Source: a virus. From it: a DNA stretch of 64,000 bases. The stretch covers positions 1 through 64,000 of IMG/VR virus record IMGVR_UViG_3300025137_000020; one strand, 5' to 3'. Made by a program: the position numbers and the translations under genes. Each line of letters begins with the position of its first letter. The first letter of the stretch is position 1. Below, piece after piece: positions 2,123-27,417 of the stretch. The notes beneath the pieces are model-generated. The model saw only the letters and a list, made by a program, of their open reading frames with translations. It ran no database searches and was not told where the DNA came from.

Positions 2123-2473
2123 TTAGTTATCTACTTTAGCAGAGCCTCTCCATTGGTAACAAGACCAGTACCGAGCTTTCCATTTCGGTCCAGGGTTATC
2201 ACAACTATGTCGTGCTCTAAAGTTTTTTCTGCGTTTGGGGTCGTCTCTTTTGATTTCCATATTGGGGTCACCAAATCGAACTACCACAACCGTACCTTTT
2301 TCGTTTTTGACGTATACTTTAAATTTCTTATTCTTATTCTCTGAAGTACGAATAGGATTATTAAGCTCTACTTTCTTACCTTGGTATTCAGCCTCAGTGA
2401 TTAGTAAGTGCTCGTAAAGACCTTCACATGCTTCATCTACCGCATCTTCAGTGTATGTTTTAAATTGCTTCAT
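2123..2473 (-). CDS. Small basic predicted internal head protein (RFGD...RKNFRARH..C...ARYWSC family)
   Basis: CTS-like start MKQFKTYTE. Conserved motif VVRFGDPNM...RRKNFRARHSCD...ARYWSC. Confidence 0.65.
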   Translation of the reverse strand: MKQFKTYTEDAVDEACEGLYEHLLITEAEYQGKKVELNNPIRTSENKNKKFKVYVKNEKGTVVVVRFGDPNMEIKRDDPKRRKNFRARHSCDNPGPKWKARYWSCYQWRGSAKVDN

Positions 2474-4824
2474 TATTTTTTTACTTTAGCAGCGAGGTCT
2501 TTATCAGCTCCACCCCAAGTTCCTTTTGATTTAGTTACAAATGAATTGACTCGGGCGTATCCCCATTGTGTTGGATTAGTACCTGGTCTATGTCCGGTTC
2601 TCCATGCTGCGACTCCGCGGTTGAAGACTTGTTTTAGAATGCCATAGGAAATACCAGTCTTGTCAGCTTTCTTTTGTAGTGCGTCCAATTTCTTTTCTTT
2701 TACCGTCGTTTTTTCGAACATCTCGTAAGGAAGGTTTTTCTTCTTATTGTATTCTAGCTTTCTAAGTTTTTCTCTAAACGCCTTTGAACGACCATCTAAT
2801 CCTTTGGGGTCGGCTTCGTCAAATAGAGCAATCAATGCGTTTAAGAGTTTTCCTTTTTGCAGTAAATCTCTTGAAGACTTATCGCCAAGAGCTGTCATGA
2901 TCGTCTCTTGAGATGCGGTCTTAAGTTTCTTAAACATAACGGCGATTTCTTTCGGAGTATCACCGCGTTTAATCATGTAAACTACATTGCCGGCAGTCTT
3001 CTTATCAGAACCTTTGAACTTTAGTTTATCTAATGCTTTAGACTCTTTAATTTCAGCTTCTTCGCTGTTGATGCTTTGGAGTTCTTCTTCTATTGACTCA
3101 TTCTTACGAAGAAGGAGTTCTCTATTTAGCATTGATATTGTTTTCTTAGCTCGGGTAACTCCTTTAAAAGCTTTAAGTAAGTCTAATATATCTTGTTTGG
3201 AAAGTTTGACGAGCTGAGCTGCAGTAGCTTCTTCAATTGATTCTAGTTTAGTCAGTTTCTTCTTAAGCATATCGACATACTTATTACCACCATACATCTT
3301 AACCATACGAGCATCTGGATTTTTAATTAGTGCTTTAAGGTCTTTGATTAGAAGTTGCTTTTCAGAAGCTTCATCAAGACTTTCTGCAAACATGTTATAT
3401 CCACGAACGTCTTCTTCGTCTTGCATTTTCTTTATAAACTTTTCTGCGGAGGTTTGATTTGGAAAAGACTTTTTCATCTTCTTACCATTCCACAGTTCGA
3501 CTGAAGCGACTACTTTCTTTGCTTCTTCAAGGTCAGTAGATTCTCCGATTGTATCAACCTCAGGTTGTTTTTGAATATAACGAATAATAGGCTTTTCATT
3601 TGGAACAATCATACTGAGACCAGATTTGTCAATGCTTGTATCCCACGAACTAAATTTGTTTCTCAGTTTCTTTTTAAGTCTTAACGCGGCTTGCTTAGTT
3701 AAAGCTTTAACTACTACACGGCGGCCATCTTTCACACCTATGTTTTCTTCAATACTATTAGATTCTCCTAACACCGCATCAACACTACCACCTGGAACTA
3801 GTGCGGGATTGCCTTTCATTTGCTTAATCCCTTTCTTAATAGCTTCGGCTGAGTTACGTGCTTTTACATCCACTGTCTGGCCCTTGAAGAGTTTACCAGC
3901 TTTCTTAGTAATAGTTACTGTCCAAAATTTGATTGCTTCATTAACAGATTCGTTGACTTCGTCGTTCATGTCAATTTCCATCTCAGACAATCCCTTCAAG
4001 CCGGCTTTCTTACGGAGAATGTTTAGCGCTTTAATTGTTTCTCTTTGCTTTGGTGAACCAGGAATCTGTTTCAGAGCTAGAGTTGTAAGCTTAAGCATGT
4101 CTGCGTCATTATGCTCGTCAACTGCATCGACCTCAGCATCGTCTTCGGCTTCGTCGGCTTGGCCATCTGTATAATCTAAGGTGTCTTCTTCGTCTTCGTC
4201 TACATCTACAACTCTTTTTAATACAGAGCTTGATTCATAGCTATCGTTATCTTCGCACTTTTGTTTAAGCTCAGCTAAATCGTTTTCATCTTTATACCAG
4301 CTTGACTTAACCTCTTCTCCCGTACTCTTCTGTGCTATCAATTGAAATTCTGTTCTTTCTGCTAAATCCCTTTTAAACGCCGCTAAGGCGATAGTCGACT
4401 CATAAAGAGAATAGTTAGTTATGTCGATAGGACGCTTTTCTAAAAAGGCTTCTAAAACTGCTTCGGCTTCACTCGGAAATGAAGTCTTTAAAATTTCTAA
4501 ACGATAATTAATCATAGTGTTTTCCTTTGCTGGTACCCGGGTTCTTTTTCCTTTAGGTGCTTTTCGTGGTGTAAATAAATCAGTTGATGGTATTTTTTTC
4601 ATGGGTGCACCAGAGAAAAATACTAAAGAGCCATCGTCGTCAAGGGCGGGATAATATTGGTCTGGGCGCTTATCAATATCCATTTTAATACCCAGCTTAA
4701 CTCGACCGGTGAGTTTACTAGTCGCAACAGCAATATTATGCTTCTTAGATAAAGATTTCTTTCGAAACTTATTACCCAATCTCCATGTCTTTGCTAAATC
4801 AACTGCCTGCTTTTTGTTTAACAT
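2473..4824 (-). CDS. Modular predicted internal head polyprotein with C-terminal DUF5824-like domain
   Basis: Tandem basic modules separated by ES-x(0-2)-[ILV]-[DEN]-E linkers. C-terminal LKQVFNRGVAAWRTGHRPG...QWGYARVNSF motif. Late promoter at 4834-4841. Confidence 0.65.
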   Translation of the reverse strand: MLNKKQAVDLAKTWRLGNKFRKKSLSKKHNIAVATSKLTGRVKLGIKMDIDKRPDQYYPALDDDGSLVFFSGAPMKKIPSTDLFTPRKAPKGKRTRVPAKENTMINYRLEILKTSFPSEAEAVLEAFLEKRPIDITNYSLYESTIALAAFKRDLAERTEFQLIAQKSTGEEVKSSWYKDENDLAELKQKCEDNDSYESSSVLKRVVDVDEDEEDTLDYTDGQADEAEDDAEVDAVDEHNDADMLKLTTLALKQIPGSPKQRETIKALNILRKKAGLKGLSEMEIDMNDEVNESVNEAIKFWTVTITKKAGKLFKGQTVDVKARNSAEAIKKGIKQMKGNPALVPGGSVDAVLGESNSIEENIGVKDGRRVVVKALTKQAALRLKKKLRNKFSSWDTSIDKSGLSMIVPNEKPIIRYIQKQPEVDTIGESTDLEEAKKVVASVELWNGKKMKKSFPNQTSAEKFIKKMQDEEDVRGYNMFAESLDEASEKQLLIKDLKALIKNPDARMVKMYGGNKYVDMLKKKLTKLESIEEATAAQLVKLSKQDILDLLKAFKGVTRAKKTISMLNRELLLRKNESIEEELQSINSEEAEIKESKALDKLKFKGSDKKTAGNVVYMIKRGDTPKEIAVMFKKLKTASQETIMTALGDKSSRDLLQKGKLLNALIALFDEADPKGLDGRSKAFREKLRKLEYNKKKNLPYEMFEKTTVKEKKLDALQKKADKTGISYGILKQVFNRGVAAWRTGHRPGTNPTQWGYARVNSFVTKSKGTWGGADKDLAAKVKK

Positions 4825-4833
4825 ACTAATCTC

Positions 4834-4841
4834 TATTTATA
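4834..4841 (-). promoter_or_regulatory. T4-type late promoter TATAAATA
   Basis: Exact consensus 9 nt upstream of ATG 4824. Confidence 0.8.
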
Positions 4842-4846
4842 CGATT

Positions 4847-7282
4847 TTACCCGCCAAACTCATGGCCAGCTACTCTTTTCATTTGCTTTTTAAATTCTGC
4901 GAAGTTAGGCTTAGTTTTATACAGCTTAATACTTATTTCTGCTCTTTCTTTTCCTTTGATTCTCCACTCGTAACCTTTGGCTTTGTGCTCAGGTTTAGTT
5001 GTTCGAACTACGCGTCTTTCAAATCCATTCTCCCAAGTCTCGCTCTTCTTTTCTTCTAAATCTTTTTCTTCGGGTACACAATTAGGAACATTCTTATTTC
5101 CCTTTTTCTTCATACCTACTTGCTTATAGCCATCCCAACAACCATCTGCTTCGTCTACCTCTTCGCCTGGGGTGTTCTTTTTATATTTTTTCGTTAGCTT
5201 ATCTGTTCCAAGTTCACCGTAGGTTTCTTTAAATGATTTAGTAGATTCTACTACCCATTCTTGGCCTTTTGGAACATACTTTTGAATCTTTCGTAGAATA
5301 TCTTTTTCGATATCAGTGTGTTTCATAGGTGGCTTACCTGATTCCTTAACCTTAAAGTATAAAGCATCTTTGAGAAACTGTCCGCCTTTATCGCTCTTTT
5401 TCAAATCACTATCTACACCAATCTTATTGAAGGCGAAGGTAATATCTCCGTCCATATATTTCTTTAGGCCTTTGCCCATCTTCACAATATCTAACATTGT
5501 TTGTGATGCGCCTCTATGAGTATTTACTAGAATTTCAATTGGTACTACTCTACCTCTTGTCGGATCGGTGTTCTGAGACTTAGCAACTTCTACATCGTTT
5601 ACTACCCATACGATATGAATATTCTTAGTAGGATAGCTTGCGCCTTGAAGAAGTCTAGTTATGTTGTCTAGCTTTCTTAAATCTTTTAGTGTGACATCGA
5701 ATATAACATTGGGCTTATCTTCAGGTTGCTTAGTCATTACCGATGTAAAGAATGCTGCCATCTTCTTATTAGGAAGATTCAATTCATCTGCTACTATACT
5801 GTGAAGTTTACTTACGTCGCCACTTCTAGTTAAATCGAATTTAGAAAGTTCTTGGCCAGTTTTGTCTTTAACAATCTGAGCAATCTTCGGTGCCTTGAGG
5901 ACTAATCTCTTTAATTCATCAACATCAAACTTCTTACCTTCCATGCCGATAAGATTGTCAAGTACAAATCCTTTACCGGAACCGGCTCCTCCAGCTAGAA
6001 TTAGTGCATGACCTGATTTAGGATATGCTTTTTTAGCGAAGGTAATTAGCTTCTCGTCAAGTTGAACATCCTCGACCATTGTGTATCCTAACTTAGGTAC
6101 ATTGTTATATCTTTCAAGCTCTTGTCCACTCGGTGTTTGAATTGATACTCCACCTTTAATCTTTACGATTTTAAGAGAGCTTGCTTTAGAACCGTATTCC
6201 TTCTTCAACTCCTTTTTGAGCTGAACCATGGTCATGTATTTAGTTTTTTCACCAAACATCTGTTGATACTTCTTTGTGTGTTTAGATGGTTTGGTTTTTG
6301 CAGTAGCATCACCGGGAGCGGGTTCGTATGCCGAATCATCATCGTCGTCTTTAGCTGCGCCTTTCTTAAAATGAGCGTCTCTTTTATCTTTAGTAGACTT
6401 GGACATCTCTTTACCTTTAGCATCTTTTCCATAATACTTAGCGGGTTGAGTGCCCTTTTTGTCTTTTACGTCTGGGTCTTGCTTAACTTCTGACAAATCT
6501 TGAATCCAATACTTTTTACCGATTGAAGATACAATGTAGTTTGGCTTTCTTTCTGATATAGTTACAATCTTGTTTTCTTTATTATAAACGGTGTCTCCAA
6601 CATTAAACACTTCGCCTCTAGCATATAATTCTCTTATATCTGATACTTTATCAAGTTGCACGTGTTCTCTAAAGTCGTTAACTTTCTTTAAGCCCATTGC
6701 TTTTCTTAATGCATTGAAGAGTTCGGCAGCACCAGAATAACCTTTCGGTAATCCATTTTGAAATAATTTAAAATCGCCATCTGATGCAGCAGTTCTCATC
6801 TTAGATGCTGACATGCCAGTTACGCCTTCAGCGTCTGGATCACGTTCTCCAGCCGATACTACATTAATGCCGTTGACGAAATTATAATATCCATGTCTAG
6901 CCTTTGTGTCGTTATACTTTTTCAATAAGCTATCAAAGTCTTGCACTCTATCACCACCAACAACCATAGTGATTTTATTATATCCCATATCATAAAGGTC
7001 TGAAGCGATGGCTAATGCATTATTGACCTTATTATTCATTACAATACTTCTTGCATGCTTTGGGAACATTTTGCGCATGAAGCGAATCTTATCTTTGTAT
7101 ACTAAAGGATTCTTTTTTGGGTCATTGGACGTGGATGCGTAAATCTTATAGTCTTTACTCTTTGCCACCTTAGCAATTTTGTCCATTAGCTTTTGGTGAC
7201 CGGTGGTAGGCGGGTTAAATCTGCCGAAAGTAAAAAATACTTCTTTTTCCTTTGCTTCATTAAATTGTTTAAATGACTTCAT
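4847..7282 (-). CDS. Cytidyltransferase-like (HxGH) nucleotidyltransferase fused to a P-loop kinase (AAA_33/zeta-like) and small modules; predicted head-packaged
   Basis: FTFGRFNPPTTGHQKL, VVGGDRV and GMSASKMR (HxGH/KMSKS-type fold). Walker A LAGGAGSGKG at ~5970-5995, then NVIFDVT and RVVPIEIL. CTS-like start MKSFKQFNE; CWDGYKQVG...VPNCVPE module. Confidence 0.8.
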   Translation of the reverse strand: MKSFKQFNEAKEKEVFFTFGRFNPPTTGHQKLMDKIAKVAKSKDYKIYASTSNDPKKNPLVYKDKIRFMRKMFPKHARSIVMNNKVNNALAIASDLYDMGYNKITMVVGGDRVQDFDSLLKKYNDTKARHGYYNFVNGINVVSAGERDPDAEGVTGMSASKMRTAASDGDFKLFQNGLPKGYSGAAELFNALRKAMGLKKVNDFREHVQLDKVSDIRELYARGEVFNVGDTVYNKENKIVTISERKPNYIVSSIGKKYWIQDLSEVKQDPDVKDKKGTQPAKYYGKDAKGKEMSKSTKDKRDAHFKKGAAKDDDDDSAYEPAPGDATAKTKPSKHTKKYQQMFGEKTKYMTMVQLKKELKKEYGSKASSLKIVKIKGGVSIQTPSGQELERYNNVPKLGYTMVEDVQLDEKLITFAKKAYPKSGHALILAGGAGSGKGFVLDNLIGMEGKKFDVDELKRLVLKAPKIAQIVKDKTGQELSKFDLTRSGDVSKLHSIVADELNLPNKKMAAFFTSVMTKQPEDKPNVIFDVTLKDLRKLDNITRLLQGASYPTKNIHIVWVVNDVEVAKSQNTDPTRGRVVPIEILVNTHRGASQTMLDIVKMGKGLKKYMDGDITFAFNKIGVDSDLKKSDKGGQFLKDALYFKVKESGKPPMKHTDIEKDILRKIQKYVPKGQEWVVESTKSFKETYGELGTDKLTKKYKKNTPGEEVDEADGCWDGYKQVGMKKKGNKNVPNCVPEEKDLEEKKSETWENGFERRVVRTTKPEHKAKGYEWRIKGKERAEISIKLYKTKPNFAEFKKQMKRVAGHEFGG

Positions 7283-7286
7283 ACTA

Positions 7287-7661
7287 CTATTTATCTTCGT
7301 TTGAGGATGCCCTAAATCTCTTCAATCTTTCTTTTTCCGCTTTCTTAACTTTAGGCAAAAGCTTTCGTGCTATCCGGCCGATTGCCGATTGTTTCTTTTT
7401 AAGTTTCTTTTCTAATGATTCCCGTTCTGCAAATGATAAGTCGCTCGGGTTTCTGTTCTTTAAAATCTTTTTAGTCAAAATCTTTCTAGCCAGTTTTCTA
7501 GCTCGGTTTTCTAGCTTTTCGGGTGTAGCCATTTTCCGCATCGCGAGCTTTTTCTTACGAGCAATTTTCTTAGCCATCCGCCGCATCTTCTGTCCTCGCT
7601 TAATTCTTTGAGCGCGAGTAAGAGCTTCGTCGGTTTGTGTGTATTCTTTAAATGATATCAT
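7287..7661 (-). CDS. Highly basic predicted internal head (DNA-binding) protein
   Basis: ATG 7661 overlaps the upstream stop (ATGA). Start MISFKEYTQTDE|A is CTS-like; remainder is very K/R-rich and helical. Confidence 0.65.
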   Translation of the reverse strand: MISFKEYTQTDEALTRAQRIKRGQKMRRMAKKIARKKKLAMRKMATPEKLENRARKLARKILTKKILKNRNPSDLSFAERESLEKKLKKKQSAIGRIARKLLPKVKKAEKERLKRFRASSNEDK

Positions 7662-8890
7662 TTTTCCCAACCCTTAATTACGTCTTTTGAAAAGTTATTA
7701 TAAGAAAACTCTAATCTATCTACAAGCTTAATTGCCCCGCCGCCAATCTTATCAATTGCAACAAACCCTTCTTGGCCCGTAACTTTAAATCCTTGTTTAG
7801 TTCTAACAAAAGTATTCATACTCTTAACCTTATCGAGTTTAGATATAATAAGTTCCTTTGCAACCACCAACTGCTTTTGTAGTTCGAACACTAGTTCTAA
7901 ATTCTTTTTGTTAGAAGCGGAGAAGAACTTAAGTCTTTCGTCTTTCTTCTGAACAACTTTTTCTTTTCCAGCTGCGCTCTTTCTCTTGTCAACCTCTTTA
8001 GTGTATCTTTGTTCATACCATTTGAGAAGATTGACAACATGCTTCTTTGAATCTTTAATCTTTTCTCCGGCTCTTACATATGTGTTATTGAATGTTTCGA
8101 GTTCTTGAGAAAGACTTGGGTCCTTTTCGATTTGTCTGAGTGTAGAGCCTTGAATCTTTTGGAATATCTTTCCTGCCACTGAAAGAGCTTTGGTAACCTC
8201 GTCGGTTTCTTCTTTTGACAATAGAGTACCAGACACATCTTTCAAACCAGCATCGTCAAAGAAGATTGAATCTGACTGCTTAAATGAGCCTGTGGCAACC
8301 TTATAAGTTGCTTTCATCGATTCAAAATCACTTCCGTTGTATGTGGTGTGAAAGATAATACCAATTTTAGCTTTATTAATCTTCTTGCCTAAATCAGATT
8401 TGACTGGTACTGCGTATACAATCGTGTTTGGTTGAAACGTATAATAGTTTTCCCCATCAATCGTTTCAGTATCTACATCATCAGTAAATAGTAAATCTCC
8501 CTGTACTACCCCTTTGATTCCTAACTTACTTAGTTCTGATAAAGCTACTTTGAGTTTGGATGCAAGGTCACCAGATGTATCGGCATCTACGTCTGCATTT
8601 GTTTTATAGACTTTAGGATTCTTATTGAAGATTCCTTTCTTAGCCACAAAGAATTTTCCATCGCTTGGGTCGATTCCAGCAAATACTGCAGGAGCACCAT
8701 CCCATTTAACAGTTACGTCGGTTGTCTTTGAAGATTCTCCGGCTAACATATCTCTCATACCACGAAGAGCAAAGATTGCTTCTCGAGCTCCTTTTACACC
8801 ACCATATAATACTCGGTCCTCAATATGAGTCATGTGAGTATTCTTACCGGGTGCTGATGCTTCAGCAATATATGATTTGAAATTAATCAT
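7658..8890 (-). CDS. DUF6267-like protein with ligase/covalent nucleotidyltransferase motifs; predicted head-packaged
   Basis: TVKWDGAP (motif I KxDG, 8696-8707), VVQGDLLF (III-like), GQEGFVAID (IV), AIKLVDR (V). Start MINFKSYIAE|A resembles the T4 CTS. Confidence 0.7.
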   Translation of the reverse strand: MINFKSYIAEASAPGKNTHMTHIEDRVLYGGVKGAREAIFALRGMRDMLAGESSKTTDVTVKWDGAPAVFAGIDPSDGKFFVAKKGIFNKNPKVYKTNADVDADTSGDLASKLKVALSELSKLGIKGVVQGDLLFTDDVDTETIDGENYYTFQPNTIVYAVPVKSDLGKKINKAKIGIIFHTTYNGSDFESMKATYKVATGSFKQSDSIFFDDAGLKDVSGTLLSKEETDEVTKALSVAGKIFQKIQGSTLRQIEKDPSLSQELETFNNTYVRAGEKIKDSKKHVVNLLKWYEQRYTKEVDKRKSAAGKEKVVQKKDERLKFFSASNKKNLELVFELQKQLVVAKELIISKLDKVKSMNTFVRTKQGFKVTGQEGFVAIDKIGGGAIKLVDRLEFSYNNFSKDVIKGWEK

Positions 8891-11043
8891 GGTTTTAATA
8901 TTACCTTTGCTTGTTTAATAATACCTTTTGGTCCAACTGATTTTTTTAAATATTTCACTAAAGCTTGAACTGCTTTTTTAAACGCGCCTTTAAAAGTAAA
9001 ATCTCCATCGTCTAAAACCATATTGCCCATCGCACGAATTGGAACCTTATAGTCAAACTTCCACGTGTCATTGCCTTTAGGTCTTTGACCTCCGTGTTTA
9101 GATGACCATTTTAATATATCAATATTAAACGGAATAGAGCCAAAGATTTCTTCTAATTCCCTTTCTTGCAAACTCTGAGCGTGCTCTTTAAAAGTAGTCT
9201 GTTCTACCACGTTGAGGTCTTTAAATTTCTTTTGTACTTCTGGGTGCCACTGATATGTCGTATTAAGTTTTCCGGTTACACCCGACTTTGACCTTTGGGT
9301 TTTCATTGCAATAGGAATACGCTTGCCGTCTTTAGTTATAGCATATACAAAAATGTTTCTTCCGGTAATCGCGCCAGTCTTCGAGTTCTTAGTAACCTCT
9401 TCACCATCACCTGGTTTACCAACATCGAAGTGAGTAATAAAATCGTCGGTAGATTCTATATTAAGTGCAGCTTTGATTTGCTCAGCTTCTACTACAGTAC
9501 CGCCCATATTTAAATTAAACAGGCCTGGATATTTTCCTACGCCTTCACCATCTTCACCATCGACAACTCCAAGATGGAGCTTATCAATTATATTCTTGCC
9601 TTCAAGATAGTCTCCTAACCCTTTAGATTCTCCGTTCGGCAATTTGATTTGCGTTTGATTTAGCTTATCGTTAGTTTCTCTTTGTACGTCTAAGCTTCTT
9701 TTCTTAATCTTGCCTAAGTTGACCTTAACATCGTTTTGAGCGCCGACTCTTTGAATCAGCTTAATCATATCCGTCGAAGGCTCTTTGGTTTTATTAGGAT
9801 CAGCCATGTAATCAATAAATGCTTTAAGCTGCTCTTCTTCACTAGCATCGTCTGCAACCGAAAATCTATTCTTAGTCTTAGTTCCTGTAAAGATTGATTT
9901 CTTACCGCCGACAAATCTAGACGCAACTAAAGGGTCTGCTTTTATCTTTTCAATAGCAGCTGTCATATCTACCTTCTGTAGACCTTGCCCTAGTGGTACT
10001 CCGACATCTTTAAGTGCAGCTTCAGCTGAGATCAAAGCCTTCTGACCATCTTCGATAATTGCGATGGCTTTAGCTTTTGTTTCTTCTTTAAGTTTTAAGC
10101 CAGAAATGACATCTTTCATTTGGTCTGACTCTTTGTTAGGTGTTGAATTGGCTTGGATATCTGATGTCGAAATCTTATCCGAGTGGAATGTTACAACTCC
10201 TCGGCCTTTGTTATCAATTGCAATTGAGGAAGTATCGGACGGATTCTCTCCACCACCACTCACTCTTATAAATTCTACTAATTGGGCTCTAGGAATCTCT
10301 ACACCTTTATTAGTATAAAAAGGACCTGCACTAGCTTTGATTAATTCGACCTGTGCTTCGATTGACTGTGAATGGCCATAGAAATTTCTAATTTTAGCTG
10401 GGGGAATAACTTTGCCGTCTTCAGCAAGTGCGTCAATCGCTTTAGTCATTTTCTTATGTTTTTGCATGCCAGACTTGGCAGTAGAACCCATAAGAGCAAA
10501 TAGCTTTTTATCTAAGCCTTCTCGTTCTCCTCTTTTAAATGTCTCACCGCCTGAGTTCTGTTTACCGAGGGTAGTGTCTTTGACTTGATTGTATAAAGCT
10601 CTCTGAAGTTCTTCTTCGGTAATATCTGGTTTAAGTGTAATAATGTTGGACGCTTCACCCGACATAATTTCCTGCATCATCGACCCCGCGTTTCCAGGTG
10701 CTGGTTTAAACCCATCTACTTCATTATAGCCAATATCTAATCCTTTCTGCTTAATGGCTCCATCAGAAAATTTGTCATCTCTGTCTCCTAGCTTTCCACG
10801 AGAAGGTGCATTTGACGTCGCAGTTGATTTTTTAGAAGGTTGAGCTTTATCAGATGGCGTTGTGTCTGATTTAGGGTCTGCTTTGGCAATTGGTTCTAAC
10901 CTTTTTCCGTCGTCAGATGCTTTGAAAGACGGTTTATCGCCTTTCTTTTTTCCATATACACCTCGGCCAAAATGGACTAATCCCATTTTCTTGGCTTTGT
11001 CTGATGCTTCTGATTCGTGTAACTTAAAACTTTTAATTGACAT
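8887..11043 (-). CDS. Large modular predicted internal head protein, function unknown
   Basis: CTS-like start MSIKSFKLHE|S followed by an ASDKAKKMGL...GRGVYG module. Internal FKEH...LQE/LEE site precedes a small C-terminal module. Late promoter at 11090-11097. Confidence 0.55.
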   Translation of the reverse strand: MSIKSFKLHESEASDKAKKMGLVHFGRGVYGKKKGDKPSFKASDDGKRLEPIAKADPKSDTTPSDKAQPSKKSTATSNAPSRGKLGDRDDKFSDGAIKQKGLDIGYNEVDGFKPAPGNAGSMMQEIMSGEASNIITLKPDITEEELQRALYNQVKDTTLGKQNSGGETFKRGEREGLDKKLFALMGSTAKSGMQKHKKMTKAIDALAEDGKVIPPAKIRNFYGHSQSIEAQVELIKASAGPFYTNKGVEIPRAQLVEFIRVSGGGENPSDTSSIAIDNKGRGVVTFHSDKISTSDIQANSTPNKESDQMKDVISGLKLKEETKAKAIAIIEDGQKALISAEAALKDVGVPLGQGLQKVDMTAAIEKIKADPLVASRFVGGKKSIFTGTKTKNRFSVADDASEEEQLKAFIDYMADPNKTKEPSTDMIKLIQRVGAQNDVKVNLGKIKKRSLDVQRETNDKLNQTQIKLPNGESKGLGDYLEGKNIIDKLHLGVVDGEDGEGVGKYPGLFNLNMGGTVVEAEQIKAALNIESTDDFITHFDVGKPGDGEEVTKNSKTGAITGRNIFVYAITKDGKRIPIAMKTQRSKSGVTGKLNTTYQWHPEVQKKFKDLNVVEQTTFKEHAQSLQERELEEIFGSIPFNIDILKWSSKHGGQRPKGNDTWKFDYKVPIRAMGNMVLDDGDFTFKGAFKKAVQALVKYLKKSVGPKGIIKQAKVILKP

Positions 11044-11089
11044 GCAGTGTTCCCATAAAAATAAAATTGTTAGGTCATTCTAACAATAC

Positions 11090-11097
11090 TATTTATA
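11090..11097 (-). promoter_or_regulatory. T4-type late promoter TATAAATA heading the head-cargo cluster
   Basis: Exact consensus, followed by a hairpin ATTGTTAG...CTAACAAT in the leader. Confidence 0.8.
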
Positions 11098-11109
11098 AGA
11101 AAAACTATT

Positions 11110-11571
11110 TTAAGTGGGGTCGTTTATAAAGCCGCCTCTAATATTTTTATCGTCAATCCATTGGTTAAATAATCCTAGTTCCATACCATACGCTTCGATT
11201 TCCCATGGCAATTCCCAATACTTGTCTGTAGTACGATATCGTTTACCATACCACGCTGAATACGAAATTGACTCTGTGTGTGCCAGTTCTTTTCGTGAGA
11301 ACTGTTTGACATGAACCATCTCGTGAGCTACGGATAGCAGTTTCTTACGAAGTGACATACCTTTGTCGACTTTGATTTCGAATGTATTTAAGTCTTCGGT
11401 GTCAATGCAGTTAGCCCAATCGCCTTCTGTATCTCTAAGATTGGTTACTTGTACAATATCAACCTCTAGGTTTTTCTTTCGAGGCATCATCTTGTATACA
11501 CAATAATAAGCAAGAGACACGATTAGTTCCCGCTCGCGCTTAGGACCGGTGGTTTCTATGGTTATTGCCAT
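11110..11571 (-). CDS. HExxH zinc metallopeptidase-like protein
   Basis: VAHEMVHVKQ zincin motif with downstream YWELPWEIEAY (third-ligand E). Confidence 0.75.
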   Translation of the reverse strand: MAITIETTGPKRERELIVSLAYYCVYKMMPRKKNLEVDIVQVTNLRDTEGDWANCIDTEDLNTFEIKVDKGMSLRKKLLSVAHEMVHVKQFSRKELAHTESISYSAWYGKRYRTTDKYWELPWEIEAYGMELGLFNQWIDDKNIRGGFINDPT

Positions 11572-11957
11572 TAATAAACGATCTCTTTAGTTTTTAGAAC
11601 ATCTTCTTTAGCGGTCGATTTGAAAAACTCATCGACGTTGTGAGCCTTGTCATCAATCCAAACATCATAGTGTGGTTTGCCAACTTTGAAGCTGCTGTAT
11701 TTTACACCCCACTTGTCTAACTGATTCTTAGTCAGCTCATGCTTAGCGTGGTAGTTGCCAGTGCTCGAACCTCGAGCTGTGTAATAATTAATTGTGTGAC
11801 CTTTATCGTGAAGGTCGTTGAAGTATTGGATTCGGTCCATGTAAGGTACCGCACGGGTTTCGTCATTGTCAATTCTCCCGTCTTTGTTGAGGTAGAGCTC
11901 AAGAGAACAAATCGTTCCGTCGATGTCTACTATGAATGTTTTTAAGTTATCTGCCAT
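11571..11957 (-). CDS. HAD-superfamily phosphatase (small, EcbF/BcbF-like)
   Basis: FIVDIDGTIC (DxDGT), YYTARG, GKPHYDVWIDDKA. Confidence 0.8.
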   Translation of the reverse strand: MADNLKTFIVDIDGTICSLELYLNKDGRIDNDETRAVPYMDRIQYFNDLHDKGHTINYYTARGSSTGNYHAKHELTKNQLDKWGVKYSSFKVGKPHYDVWIDDKAHNVDEFFKSTAKEDVLKTKEIVY

Positions 11958-11961
11958 ATAT

Positions 11962-12177
11962 TTACCTTTCTAAAATTACGAAATGCCCGAAGTAATTGTC
12001 GAACACGTTTATTAAATTATCATAATCACCAGATCGCATCTCTGATAATATTGTGTTTGTGTCAAATCCCAGCTGCTTTCCAAGTCGAGTAGCTGTTCCC
12101 ATTAGAGCAAATGCATTACCATCTGGTCCTGTCAAATCGATGACGGTTTCTGAGTTTTTAGTTTTTTCCCTTATCAT
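11962..12177 (-). CDS. Conserved phage hypothetical protein
   Basis: IDLTGPDGNAFALMG...EMRSGDYDNL motif. ATG 12177 lies just after a sigma70 -10 box; the ORF-track TTG start lies inside the promoter. Confidence 0.7.
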   Translation of the reverse strand: MIREKTKNSETVIDLTGPDGNAFALMGTATRLGKQLGFDTNTILSEMRSGDYDNLINVFDNYFGHFVILER

Positions 12178-26775: not shown

Positions 26776-27417
26776 TTAGAGTTTGGAGAGGAAATCCTTA
26801 AACACCTGTTCTTGTACAGAAGCTAGTTCTGCGGAAGAGGCTTTACGAATTTCAGTCTCATATTTTTCAAGTTGCTGAGCTTTCAATATTCCATTATCCC
26901 ATATCCACTCTACGCCTTCCATAATGCCATCTACGAAAGCACCTTGGGCTGAGGGGTCTTGGACAATGTCTACTGTAGAGAGTATGTAGTCACTATTGAC
27001 ATACGTAGCTCCCTGTTTATTCTCAACTGTTCCCATACCACGGCTAGAGACGCCAAGCTTAACTCCACCTTCAATAAGACCTTCAACGATCTTACCCATA
27101 GGGGTGTTAAGAATTTGCGCCTTTCCAACAACATCATCACCATTAAATTTTAATTCGGTGATTTTGTGTGAAACTTTATCGAGGTTAATTTGTGGACCTT
27201 CTGGGTGGTCTAACTCTCCCACCGCACGTCCTTGACTAACCTGTTCGGTGACGTATTTTTCAACGGCATCGAATAAAATGTCTTTAGGATAGACTCGGCC
27301 ATTTCTATTTTTCTTTGCAGCCTGCATAAAGATACCTTCAATGAAAGTATGTTTTTTGCCATCCTTTTCTTCTGTAAGATAATTTAAATTATCGTAATGT
27401 TCTGTTATTAATCTCAT
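26776..27417 (-). CDS. gp21: Prohead protease
   Basis: IEGIFMQA..KNRNGRVYP, GELDHP, GVSSRGMG, DIVQDPSA. Confidence 0.98.
   Translation of the reverse strand: MRLITEHYDNLNYLTEEKDGKKHTFIEGIFMQAAKKNRNGRVYPKDILFDAVEKYVTEQVSQGRAVGELDHPEGPQINLDKVSHKITELKFNGDDVVGKAQILNTPMGKIVEGLIEGGVKLGVSSRGMGTVENKQGATYVNSDYILSTVDIVQDPSAQGAFVDGIMEGVEWIWDNGILKAQQLEKYETEIRKASSAELASVQEQVFKDFLSKL

Follow-up and report, generated by a model that had tools for sequence, protein, structure and literature searches.

A ligase-like DUF6267 protein and its nucleotidyltransferase partner in a putative head-cargo operon of a marine T4-like phage

What do a ligase-like protein and a multi-module transferase–kinase do in one gene block of a T4-like phage, and do they enter the next host together with the DNA? 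The question is raised by positions 4847–8890 of a 64,000-nucleotide stretch of viral DNA (IMG/VR record IMGVR_UViG_3300025137_000020, positions 1–64,000; hereafter the window). Two open reading frames (ORFs) lie there on the minus strand (7658–8890, 410 residues; 4847–7282, 811 residues), exactly where an earlier reading of the letters, the original prediction, had placed them and had proposed an injected enzyme pathway. The 410-residue product is a member of the Pfam family DUF6267, which has no assigned function. Here, we describe its ligase-like features, its close linkage with the transferase, and the signals for packaging into the phage head that surround both genes. The features of the 410-residue protein are as follows.

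7658..8890, minus strand: DUF6267 protein of 410 residues, a ligase-like covalent nucleotidyltransferase with a helical insert (226–352) and without an oligonucleotide-binding (OB) domain.
8861..8890, minus strand: propeptide MINFKSYIAE (DUF6267 residues 1–10), resembling a T4 capsid-targeting sequence (CTS), with a predicted cut after E10.
8696..8707, minus strand: motif I, KWDG, with K62 and D64 invariant and G65 conserved in at least 90% of relatives.
7715..7771, minus strand: motif IV, EGFV (374–377), and motif V, KLVDR (388–392), with G375 and K388 invariant and E374 and R392 conserved in at least 90% of relatives.

The match to DUF6267 (PF19782) covers residues 17–401 (358.7 bits against a cut-off of 27, E 6e-107), and a protein atlas search with the 410-residue protein returned DUF6267 clusters only. 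It is a very large family of marine phage proteins: clustering at 50% identity gives 2689 clusters, and at 90% it gives more than 8000. The motifs KWDG (62–65), QGDLLF (130–135), EGFV (374–377), and KLV (388–390) had been picked out by the original prediction, and KWDG, QGD, EG, and K correspond in order to ligase motifs I, III, IV, and V. Conservation was assessed in 65 relatives sharing 34–66% identity. Because K62, D64, G131, G375, and K388 are invariant in this set, and G65, Q130, D132, E374, and R392 are conserved in at least 90% of it, the motifs are not a product of chance. K62 is the predicted nucleotidyl-accepting lysine, and a K62–NMP (nucleoside monophosphate) intermediate would be expected. 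The N-terminal segment H19-x-x-H22-x-E-D is also conserved; we do not know it as a feature of the RNA ligases Rnl1 or Rnl2. The Pfam family RNA_lig_T4_1 (PF09511) was touched weakly by three of the 65 relatives (best E 6e-4). A Pfam profile search gave no such match for the 410-residue protein itself, and a six-frame search did not find PF09511 in the contig of the window or in five related phage genomes. Alignment of DUF6267 with RB43 Rnl2 by hhalign placed EGFV on EGFV alone, with a probability of 0.3%, which is not significant.

The AlphaFold model of the protein is of high confidence (pLDDT 93, pTM 0.90), with disorder limited to residues 1–10, and the motifs are located on strands 128–135, 375–380, and 386–389. 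The sole extra domain is the helical insert (226–352), inserted after the strand that follows motif IIIa and ahead of motif IV. The chain stops 20 residues past motif V, and the model shows no OB domain; none had been apparent to the original prediction either. With this model, the top seven Foldseek matches were ATP-dependent DNA ligases with weak E values (0.05–0.2). The top six rows of VIA-align were all RNA ligases (Z 7.5–8.4 over 178–207 residues), led by the Naegleria nick-sealing ligase (5cot, Z 8.4 over 188 residues) and followed by REL1 (1xdn, 8.1), the Trl1 ligase domain (8.1 and 8.0), and T4 Rnl2 (7.7 and 7.5). T4 Rnl1 scored 7.2, and DNA ligases scored 5.7–6.6. The ligase matches span 170–207 aligned residues, and Z scores of 7–8.4 are moderate. 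Taken with the motif conservation, these fold matches to RNA and DNA ligases support the earlier reading as a ligase-type covalent nucleotidyltransferase, and DUF6267 very probably has a ligase-type active site.

The second enzyme gene encodes the following modules.

4847..7282, minus strand: 811-residue multi-module protein with a CTS-like start, a transferase resembling nicotinamide mononucleotide (NMN) adenylyltransferase (NMNAT), a conserved linker motif, a kinase, and small C-terminal modules.
6413..7237, minus strand: (T/H)xGH nucleotidyltransferase module, about residues 16–290, with TTGH at 26–29 and SASKMR at 158–163.
6053..6064, minus strand: junction Q-L-D-E410, directly 5' of K411-LITF, a predicted prohead-protease site.
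5255..6052, minus strand: P-loop kinase module, residues 411–676, with K437 in the P-loop, D453/D455, D529, and R576/R578.
4850..5254, minus strand: C-terminal tail with VVE679↓S (the arrow marks a predicted cut), the relic TKSFKETYGE, GTDxLTKKYKKxTPGE, the Cys motif CWDGYKQVGMKKKGNKNVPNCVPEE, and the ETWENGFERRVV module.

In the transferase module, Pfam CTP_transf_like (PF01467) matches residues 18–116 (23.1 bits against a cut-off of 21), and phrog_395/3041, annotated "cytidyltransferase," covers residues 8–288 (phrog_395, E 5e-64). The signature that had been described as HxGH reads T-T-G-H in the actual letters (residues 26–29), and T26, G28, and H29 are invariant. S158-A-S-K161-M-R163 is conserved as the second transferase signature (ISxxxxR-type). 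The nearest NCBIfam model is the NadR NMN adenylyltransferase (TIGR01526, E 1.3e-6, 27.9 bits against a cut-off of 341). TIGR00482 is likewise below threshold (18.8 bits against 112), and models of the phosphopantetheine adenylyltransferase (PPAT) type also score. By these profiles, NMNAT is the nearest named activity, not an assignment.

The kinase module is covered by phrog_5268 (residues 405–676, E 6e-101) and marginally by Pfam Zeta_toxin (PF06414, residues 505–596, 23.9 bits against a cut-off of 22.3). Together with the structural matches, these profile hits support the view that an NMNAT-like transferase and a P-loop kinase are united in the 811-residue chain. The kinase motifs are GGAGSGKG (431–438), VIFDVT (526–531), and RVVPIEIL (578–585), and K437, D453, D455, K458, D529, T531, R576, R578, and H589 are invariant. 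The lid had been credited with a single arginine; it has two invariant ones, spaced RxR (R576 and R578). This spacing is not the RxxxR of T4 Pnk, and no HAD phosphatase is fused to the kinase. Searches of the PDB by sequence and profile with the transferase and the kinase gave nothing meaningful. The kinase model is of moderate confidence (pLDDT 76). Its best structural matches were AvrRxo1 (Z 12.8 over 175 residues) and zeta toxin (12.1), with Neisseria zeta1 and PezT (10.3) also matched. Polynucleotide kinases scored below the zeta types (clostridial CthPnkp 10.1, mammalian PNKP 9.4, and T4 Pnk 8.0), and the Foldseek ranking agrees. In this model, T4 Pnk is a more distant structural match of the kinase than AvrRxo1 and the zeta toxins are. 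No antitoxin or chaperone gene is found beside the kinase, the neighbors being cargo modules only. AvrRxo1 binds NAD+ (PMC5491322) and phosphorylates it, yielding 3'-NADP (PMC5491322, PMC5087710).

Glutamate sites resembling cleavage sites had been noticed around the kinase, and LDE410↓K411 and VVE679↓S680 fall at the exact start and end of stand-alone kinases. The junction [L/I]-x-E↓KLITF is kept in eight fused relatives with unrelated upstream sequence, and it is also the end of the leader in stand-alone kinases. The tail modules of the 811-residue protein are separate small genes in relatives, each with its own CTS-like start.

Are the enzymes linked beyond this phage? Gene context was sampled in 80 IMG/VR loci found with DUF6267 and in isolate records. 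The usual order in the 80 loci is DUF6267, a basic protein, the transferase, and small modules, and the basic protein stands between the two enzyme genes in 52 of them. Where the flank is 3 kb or longer (46 loci), the transferase is found downstream of DUF6267 in 44, with a median gap of 430 nucleotides. Many metagenomic proteins, and also the PHROG 455 profile, fuse DUF6267 to CTP_transf_like, in either order. The genes thus co-occur very tightly. The transferase–kinase fusion is confined to this phage and its nearest relatives. As a stand-alone gene, the kinase lies within the cluster in about ten loci and elsewhere in most others. The constant partner of DUF6267 is the transferase, not the kinase. 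The kinase is also found in RB43-, KP27-, and Aeromonas 65-type phages. The RB43 homologue, ORF241c (locus L005, 3980–5324), adjoins a HAD nucleotidase of NT5C type and lies about 3 kb from rnlB, the RNA ligase 2 gene. In Pelagibacter phage HTVC008M, gp129 is a different P-loop kinase, encoded by a separate gene between DUF6267 and the transferase. A kinase of the same kind as gp129 is fused to DUF6267 in the metagenomic protein P0128 (636 residues), as a tagged P-loop kinase (AAA_33/Zeta_toxin, residues 22–190). Thus, all three pairwise fusions exist (DUF6267–transferase, transferase–kinase, and kinase–DUF6267), and for this reason we regard the three enzymes as functionally tied.

The remaining features that bear on packaging are the following.

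11090..11097, minus strand: T4-type late promoter motif TATAAATA, 46 nucleotides 5' of the first gene of the operon.
8887..11043, minus strand: 718-residue protein, operon gene 1, with the start MSIKSFKLHESE↓A, CTS-like in a shifted register.
7287–7670, minus strand: basic ORF of 127 residues between the DUF6267 gene and the 811-residue gene.
7287..7661, minus strand: small, very basic protein of about 124 residues, read from Met4 of that ORF, with the start MISFKEYTQTDE↓A.
4834..4841, minus strand: second TATAAATA late-promoter motif, 10 nucleotides 5' of the next cargo gene (2473–4824).
2123–2473: ORF with the N-terminus MKQFKTYTED.
26776..27417, minus strand: gp21-type prohead protease, the enzyme expected to cut tags and junctions.

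The capsid-targeting sequence of T4 is MKTYQEFIAE, in which residues 4 and 7 serve targeting and residues 8 and 10 serve processing, and T4 gp21 cuts after L/I-x-E (PMC8442874, PMC9026906). The DUF6267 tag, MINFKSYIAE↓A, has F4, Y7, I8, and E10 at the T4 determinant positions, and that of the 811-residue protein, MKSFKQFNE↓A, has F4, F7, and E9. The CTS-like N-termini that had been noticed on both enzymes thus match key positions of the T4 sequence. Of the 109 ORFs on the contig, 0.06 would be expected to have the strict start M-x-x-[FY]-K-x-[FY]; four do, all of them adjacent (P ~7e-7), and the 718-residue protein adds a fifth CTS-like start in a shifted register. Among relatives, the DUF6267 tag is present or absent as a unit, directly before the conserved core KNxHLxHxED; the DUF6267 proteins of the cultured phages Melnitz, C48C1, and DLP_6 carry it. 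In relatives, nearly every cargo module that is encoded by a gene of its own bears a tag (the transferase, the kinase, the basic protein, DUF5824 mini-proteins, and the tail modules), the exception being the coiled-coil protein orf101. The kinase ORF241c of RB43, a true T4-family coliphage, starts with MKSFKDFVSLDE↓ALITF. Tag relics remain at fusion joints, as TKSFKETYGE after the kinase here and as MGKTFTDFITE in P0128. A start-codon bias of AT-rich DNA was considered as the sole source of the shared N-termini and rejected, because the tag appears or disappears whole ahead of a conserved core, survives inside proteins where modules are fused, and does not spread beyond a single block of genes.

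The promoter motif TATAAATA has 17 matches in the window against 7.6 expected, a number reached by no shuffle. The matches are mostly on the minus strand within about 50 nucleotides upstream of structural genes, including gp20 and the sheath gene, and are consistent with T4-type late promoters in this phage. The maturation site of gp23, which we take by alignment to T4 to be FQINE↓T, fits L/I-x-E. The packaging signals (CTS-like starts, a late-promoter motif, a gp21 gene, and conserved Glu junctions) hold, and the gene block is probably a late-transcribed operon of head cargo, with an N-terminal peptide of T4 capsid-targeting type on every protein. The small basic protein is a candidate internal DNA-associated protein resembling T4 IPII/IPIII. 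The 718-residue protein (8887–11043) could not be assigned to a family with Pfam, PHROGs, or the protein atlas, and its homologues are confined to the nearest relatives.

Virion proteomes of cyanophages bear directly on packaging. Tagged transferase homologues are present in purified virions of S-SZBM1, S-CREM2, and S-SCSM1, a further virion homologue is cited for S-CBWM1, and virion carriage of such enzymes was already suggested by the proteome authors (PMC9146016, PMC10665884, PMC9602691). In S-SZBM1 virions, the transferase homologue is accompanied by a downstream protein of 457 residues, and in S-CREM2 virions by ORFs 155 and 156 (PMC9146016, PMC10665884). The cyanophage transferase starts with MRFRQFIIE↓A (S-WAM1 and S-SZBM1; loci L003, 6995–9240, and L004, 4995–7276).

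Here, we propose that the block is a late operon whose products are loaded into the capsid, processed, and delivered to the cell along with the DNA, a reading that we rate as somewhat better than even. The CTS-like peptide would dock each cargo protein on the scaffolding core. The gp21 protease would then remove the tag after Glu and cut the 811-residue chain at its [L/I/V]-x-E junctions, setting free the transferase, the kinase, and the small tail modules. Once mature, the enzymes would remain in the head among the packaged DNA and pass into the cell together with it. The motifs, folds, synteny, fusions, tags, promoter motif, and protease gene are observations; the packaging of DUF6267, the cleavage, the ejection, the injection at "time zero," and every substrate named below are what we infer from them.

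Several observations weigh against this proposal. The tag of the 811-residue protein has N at position 8, not L/I. The cyanophage DUF6267 copies examined have no tag and start directly at the core (MSKNTHLEHLED), and DUF6267 is neither in the virion table of S-CREM2, whose DUF6267 ORF is not confirmed, nor named in the text on S-SZBM1; packaging of DUF6267 is therefore lineage-specific at best. In the present lineage, the tag and the promoter are what points to it. Carry-over of abundant proteins is allowed for by the proteome authors (PMC10665884). The Z scores of DUF6267 (7–8.4) are rated middling by VIA-align, so that the fold alone is no proof, and sequence and profile searches of the PDB found no solved relative. 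The kinase was found in none of the 80 DUF6267 loci from more distant relatives, and it is closer to small-molecule kinases than to Pnk. A 3'-end-healing domain is absent from the operon. Of the original proposal of an injected pathway, the packaging signals, the ligase-type and transferase–kinase readings, and the co-occurrence of ligase-like enzyme and transferase are supported, whereas the part of the kinase is weakened by its likeness to AvrRxo1 and zeta toxins rather than Pnk and by its absence from those 80 distant neighborhoods.

As to function, RNA or DNA end repair, NAD-linked chemistry, and host poisoning are the candidates. The likeliest is that the trio forms a kit for nucleic-acid ends, which we infer tentatively and rate well short of probable. 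The kinase would phosphorylate 5'-OH ends or a nucleotide cofactor, the ligase-like DUF6267 would adenylylate and seal 5'-phosphate ends, and the transferase would make or regenerate the adenylyl donor, for example, NAD+ from NMN. The ligase fold, the recurrent kinases, the kinase–ligase fusion, and a small HAD phosphatase nearby favor end healing and sealing. This phosphatase is located as follows.

11571–11957, minus strand: HAD-type phosphatase of 128 residues with the start MADNLKTFIVDIDGT and without a CTS-like tag, two genes upstream of the late operon.

It is of the PNKP/GmhB type, matching phrog_1238 (E 3e-25), phrog_415 "polynucleotide kinase" (E 4e-10), and, below threshold, Pfam HAD_PNKP (E 0.006). 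By these profiles, it could be the missing 3'-end-healing activity. A more specific variant, which we consider quite improbable, is a self-recharging ligase: DUF6267 would take AMP from NAD+ and release NMN, which the NMNAT-like partner would use, together with ATP, to make NAD+ again. In that case, the pair would supply Kyanoviridae with their long-missing nucleic-acid ligase, delivered ready-made by the capsid in some lineages together with an end-phosphorylating kinase. If this were true, broken DNA or RNA ends could be sealed even in NAD-depleted cells.

The nicotinamide connection can also be read without a ligase at its center. In a rather unlikely alternative, the transferase and kinase would act like NadR and rebuild NAD+ upon DNA entry to counter NAD-depleting defenses, the ligase-like enzyme being an NAD+-using partner or unrelated. 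The closest NCBIfam models for the transferase are NMN/NaMN (nicotinic acid mononucleotide) adenylyltransferases, the virion-found homologues are annotated as NMNAT (PMC9602691), the order of transferase and then P-loop kinase is that of NadR, and AvrRxo1, the top structural match of the kinase, binds NAD+ (PMC5491322). However, the NMNAT score is far under the curated cut-off (27.9 against 341 bits), PPAT-type models score too and the TxGH motif is as in PPAT, the best 50 structural matches of the kinase include no ribosylnicotinamide kinase of the NadR type, and the reading does not account for a ligase-like enzyme as near-obligate neighbor and fusion partner. Another reading is that of an effector that is injected to poison the host, in which the zeta/AvrRxo1-like kinase would phosphorylate UDP-N-acetylglucosamine (UDP-GlcNAc) or NAD+ and arrest cell-wall or redox metabolism, and the transferase and ligase-like enzyme would nucleotidylate other host targets. 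The best kinase folds (AvrRxo1, Z 12.8; zeta, 12.1; Neisseria zeta1 and PezT, 10.3), with which Foldseek concurs, the Zeta_toxin match just over its cut-off, and the production of 3'-NADP by AvrRxo1 (PMC5087710, PMC5491322) speak for it. We think it improbable, since no antitoxin-like partner is present, polynucleotide kinases are a mere 2–3 Z units lower on a model of moderate confidence (pLDDT 76), and most DUF6267 loci are without the kinase, which is a mobile module.

A different kind of explanation is that the enzymes are not cargo at all, DUF6267 being the missing nucleic-acid ligase of Kyanoviridae for replication and repair, and the N-terminal peptides being lineage-specific or having another role. 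Five complete Kyanoviridae genomes with DUF6267 (C48C1, Melnitz-3, S-WAM1, S-SZBM1, and HTVC008M) have no PF01068 (ATP-dependent) ligase, and a PF01653 (NAD-dependent) ligase is also absent in the four tested (all but S-SZBM1); RB43 has gp30. The cyanophage DUF6267 gene is untagged and located among replication genes. In contrast, the gene in the window stands behind a late-promoter motif inside a tagged operon, the DUF6267 model has no OB domain, RNA ligases outrank DNA ligases in the wide structural search, and Stenotrophomonas phage DLP_6 encodes a PF01068 ligase in addition to DUF6267. An intracellular role of this kind is judged about as improbable as host poisoning. The stricter idea that DUF6267 simply replaces the gp30 DNA ligase was rejected, as DLP_6 carries both.

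Compared with known systems, the proposed cargo operon is most like the system of T4 IPI, IPII, IPIII, and the packaged ADP-ribosyltransferase Alt. An N-terminal tag of about ten residues, with a Glu cut site and with aromatics as residues 4 and 7, is common to both, and so are expression late in infection, the presence of gp21 or its homologue, a small, very basic cargo protein, and an enzyme delivered with the DNA. The operon differs in that the predicted cargo consists of nucleotide-handling enzymes (ligase-like, NMNAT-like, and zeta-like kinase) and in that the modules are shuffled as fused polyproteins or single genes. In T4 RNA repair, Pnk (a P-loop kinase and a HAD phosphatase) is paired with Rnl1, and fungal Trl1 is a ligase, kinase, and cyclic phosphodiesterase (CPD) in one chain. 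The combination of a KxDG ligase-type enzyme with a P-loop kinase, the natural kinase–ligase fusion in P0128, and the presence of Rnl1, Rnl2, and the Trl1 ligase domain among the best structural matches of DUF6267 are in line with these systems. In contrast to them, DUF6267 has no Pfam RNA-ligase match, its motifs IIIa and IV are separated by a helical insert of 127 residues, the lid of the kinase reads RxR rather than RxxxR, there is no fused phosphatase or CPD but only the separate HAD gene (11571–11957), and the (T/H)xGH transferase, absent there, is the constant partner here. The 811-residue protein resembles NadR in having an adenylyltransferase of the HxGH type followed by a P-loop kinase in one chain, with the NadR NMNAT as its best sub-threshold NCBIfam model. 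Unlike NadR, it scores far below the cut-off, has no helix-turn-helix domain, bears a zeta/AvrRxo1-like kinase rather than a ribosylnicotinamide kinase, and has a predicted protease site between the modules. Zeta toxins (PezT and zeta) and AvrRxo1 phosphorylate UDP-GlcNAc or NAD+. The kinase shares with them the Walker A lysine, an acidic residue 16–18 positions on, and the lid arginines, but the sequence identity is only 10–14% and no antitoxin is present here. The "Cytidylyltransferase/NMNAT" proteins of cyanophage virions (S-SZBM1, S-CREM2, S-SCSM1, and S-CBWM1) have about 40% identity to the N-terminal module, the same kind of tag, and an adjacent DUF6267 gene; they lack the kinase fusion, and their DUF6267 neighbor is untagged.

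Already known are the CTS system of T4 and the occurrence of an NMNAT-like protein in virions of cyanophages. In the literature searched, we found no paper on DUF6267, and no mention of its ligase-type reading, its locked pairing and fusions, the kinase fusion, or a tag that recurs on many shuffled modules of marine T4-like phages. DUF6267 occurs in some of the most abundant ocean viruses, including cyanomyoviruses, pelagimyophages, and phages of methylotrophs. Its reading as a ligase-type enzyme with an NMNAT-like partner and often a kinase opens direct biochemical tests and offers a testable answer to the puzzle of Kyanoviridae without a recognizable ligase. The tags suggest that head loading of the T4 type, known before for few T4 proteins, is widely used in the ocean to deliver enzyme kits at infection, which bears on host takeover, counter-defense, and the loading of foreign proteins into marine phage capsids.

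The source phage is a T4-like myovirus, and the window lies within a 105-kb viral contig (CheckV completeness 59%). The window contains gp20, gp21, gp22, and gp23 and tail genes, with almost all genes on the minus strand. Megablast of positions 4000–12000 against phage isolates found no close isolate at the DNA level. Among isolates, protein identity is highest with phage C48C1 (56%), Methylophilales phage Melnitz (52%), and Stenotrophomonas phage DLP_6 (46%), followed by Pelagibacter phage HTVC008M (41%) and several hundred cyanomyoviruses (37–40%). The phage is a marine T4-like myovirus related to Kyanoviridae. Among its relatives, the small cargo modules are shuffled, occurring as single tagged genes or in fused chains of up to 1600 residues. 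They include a DUF5824 domain, the Cys motif CWDGYKQVGMKKKGNKNVPNCVPEE, GTDxxTKKYKKxTPGE / PSKHTKKYQQMFGE, and the ETWENGFERRVV module, and are encoded in the window at 2473–4824 and 4850–5254 on the minus strand.

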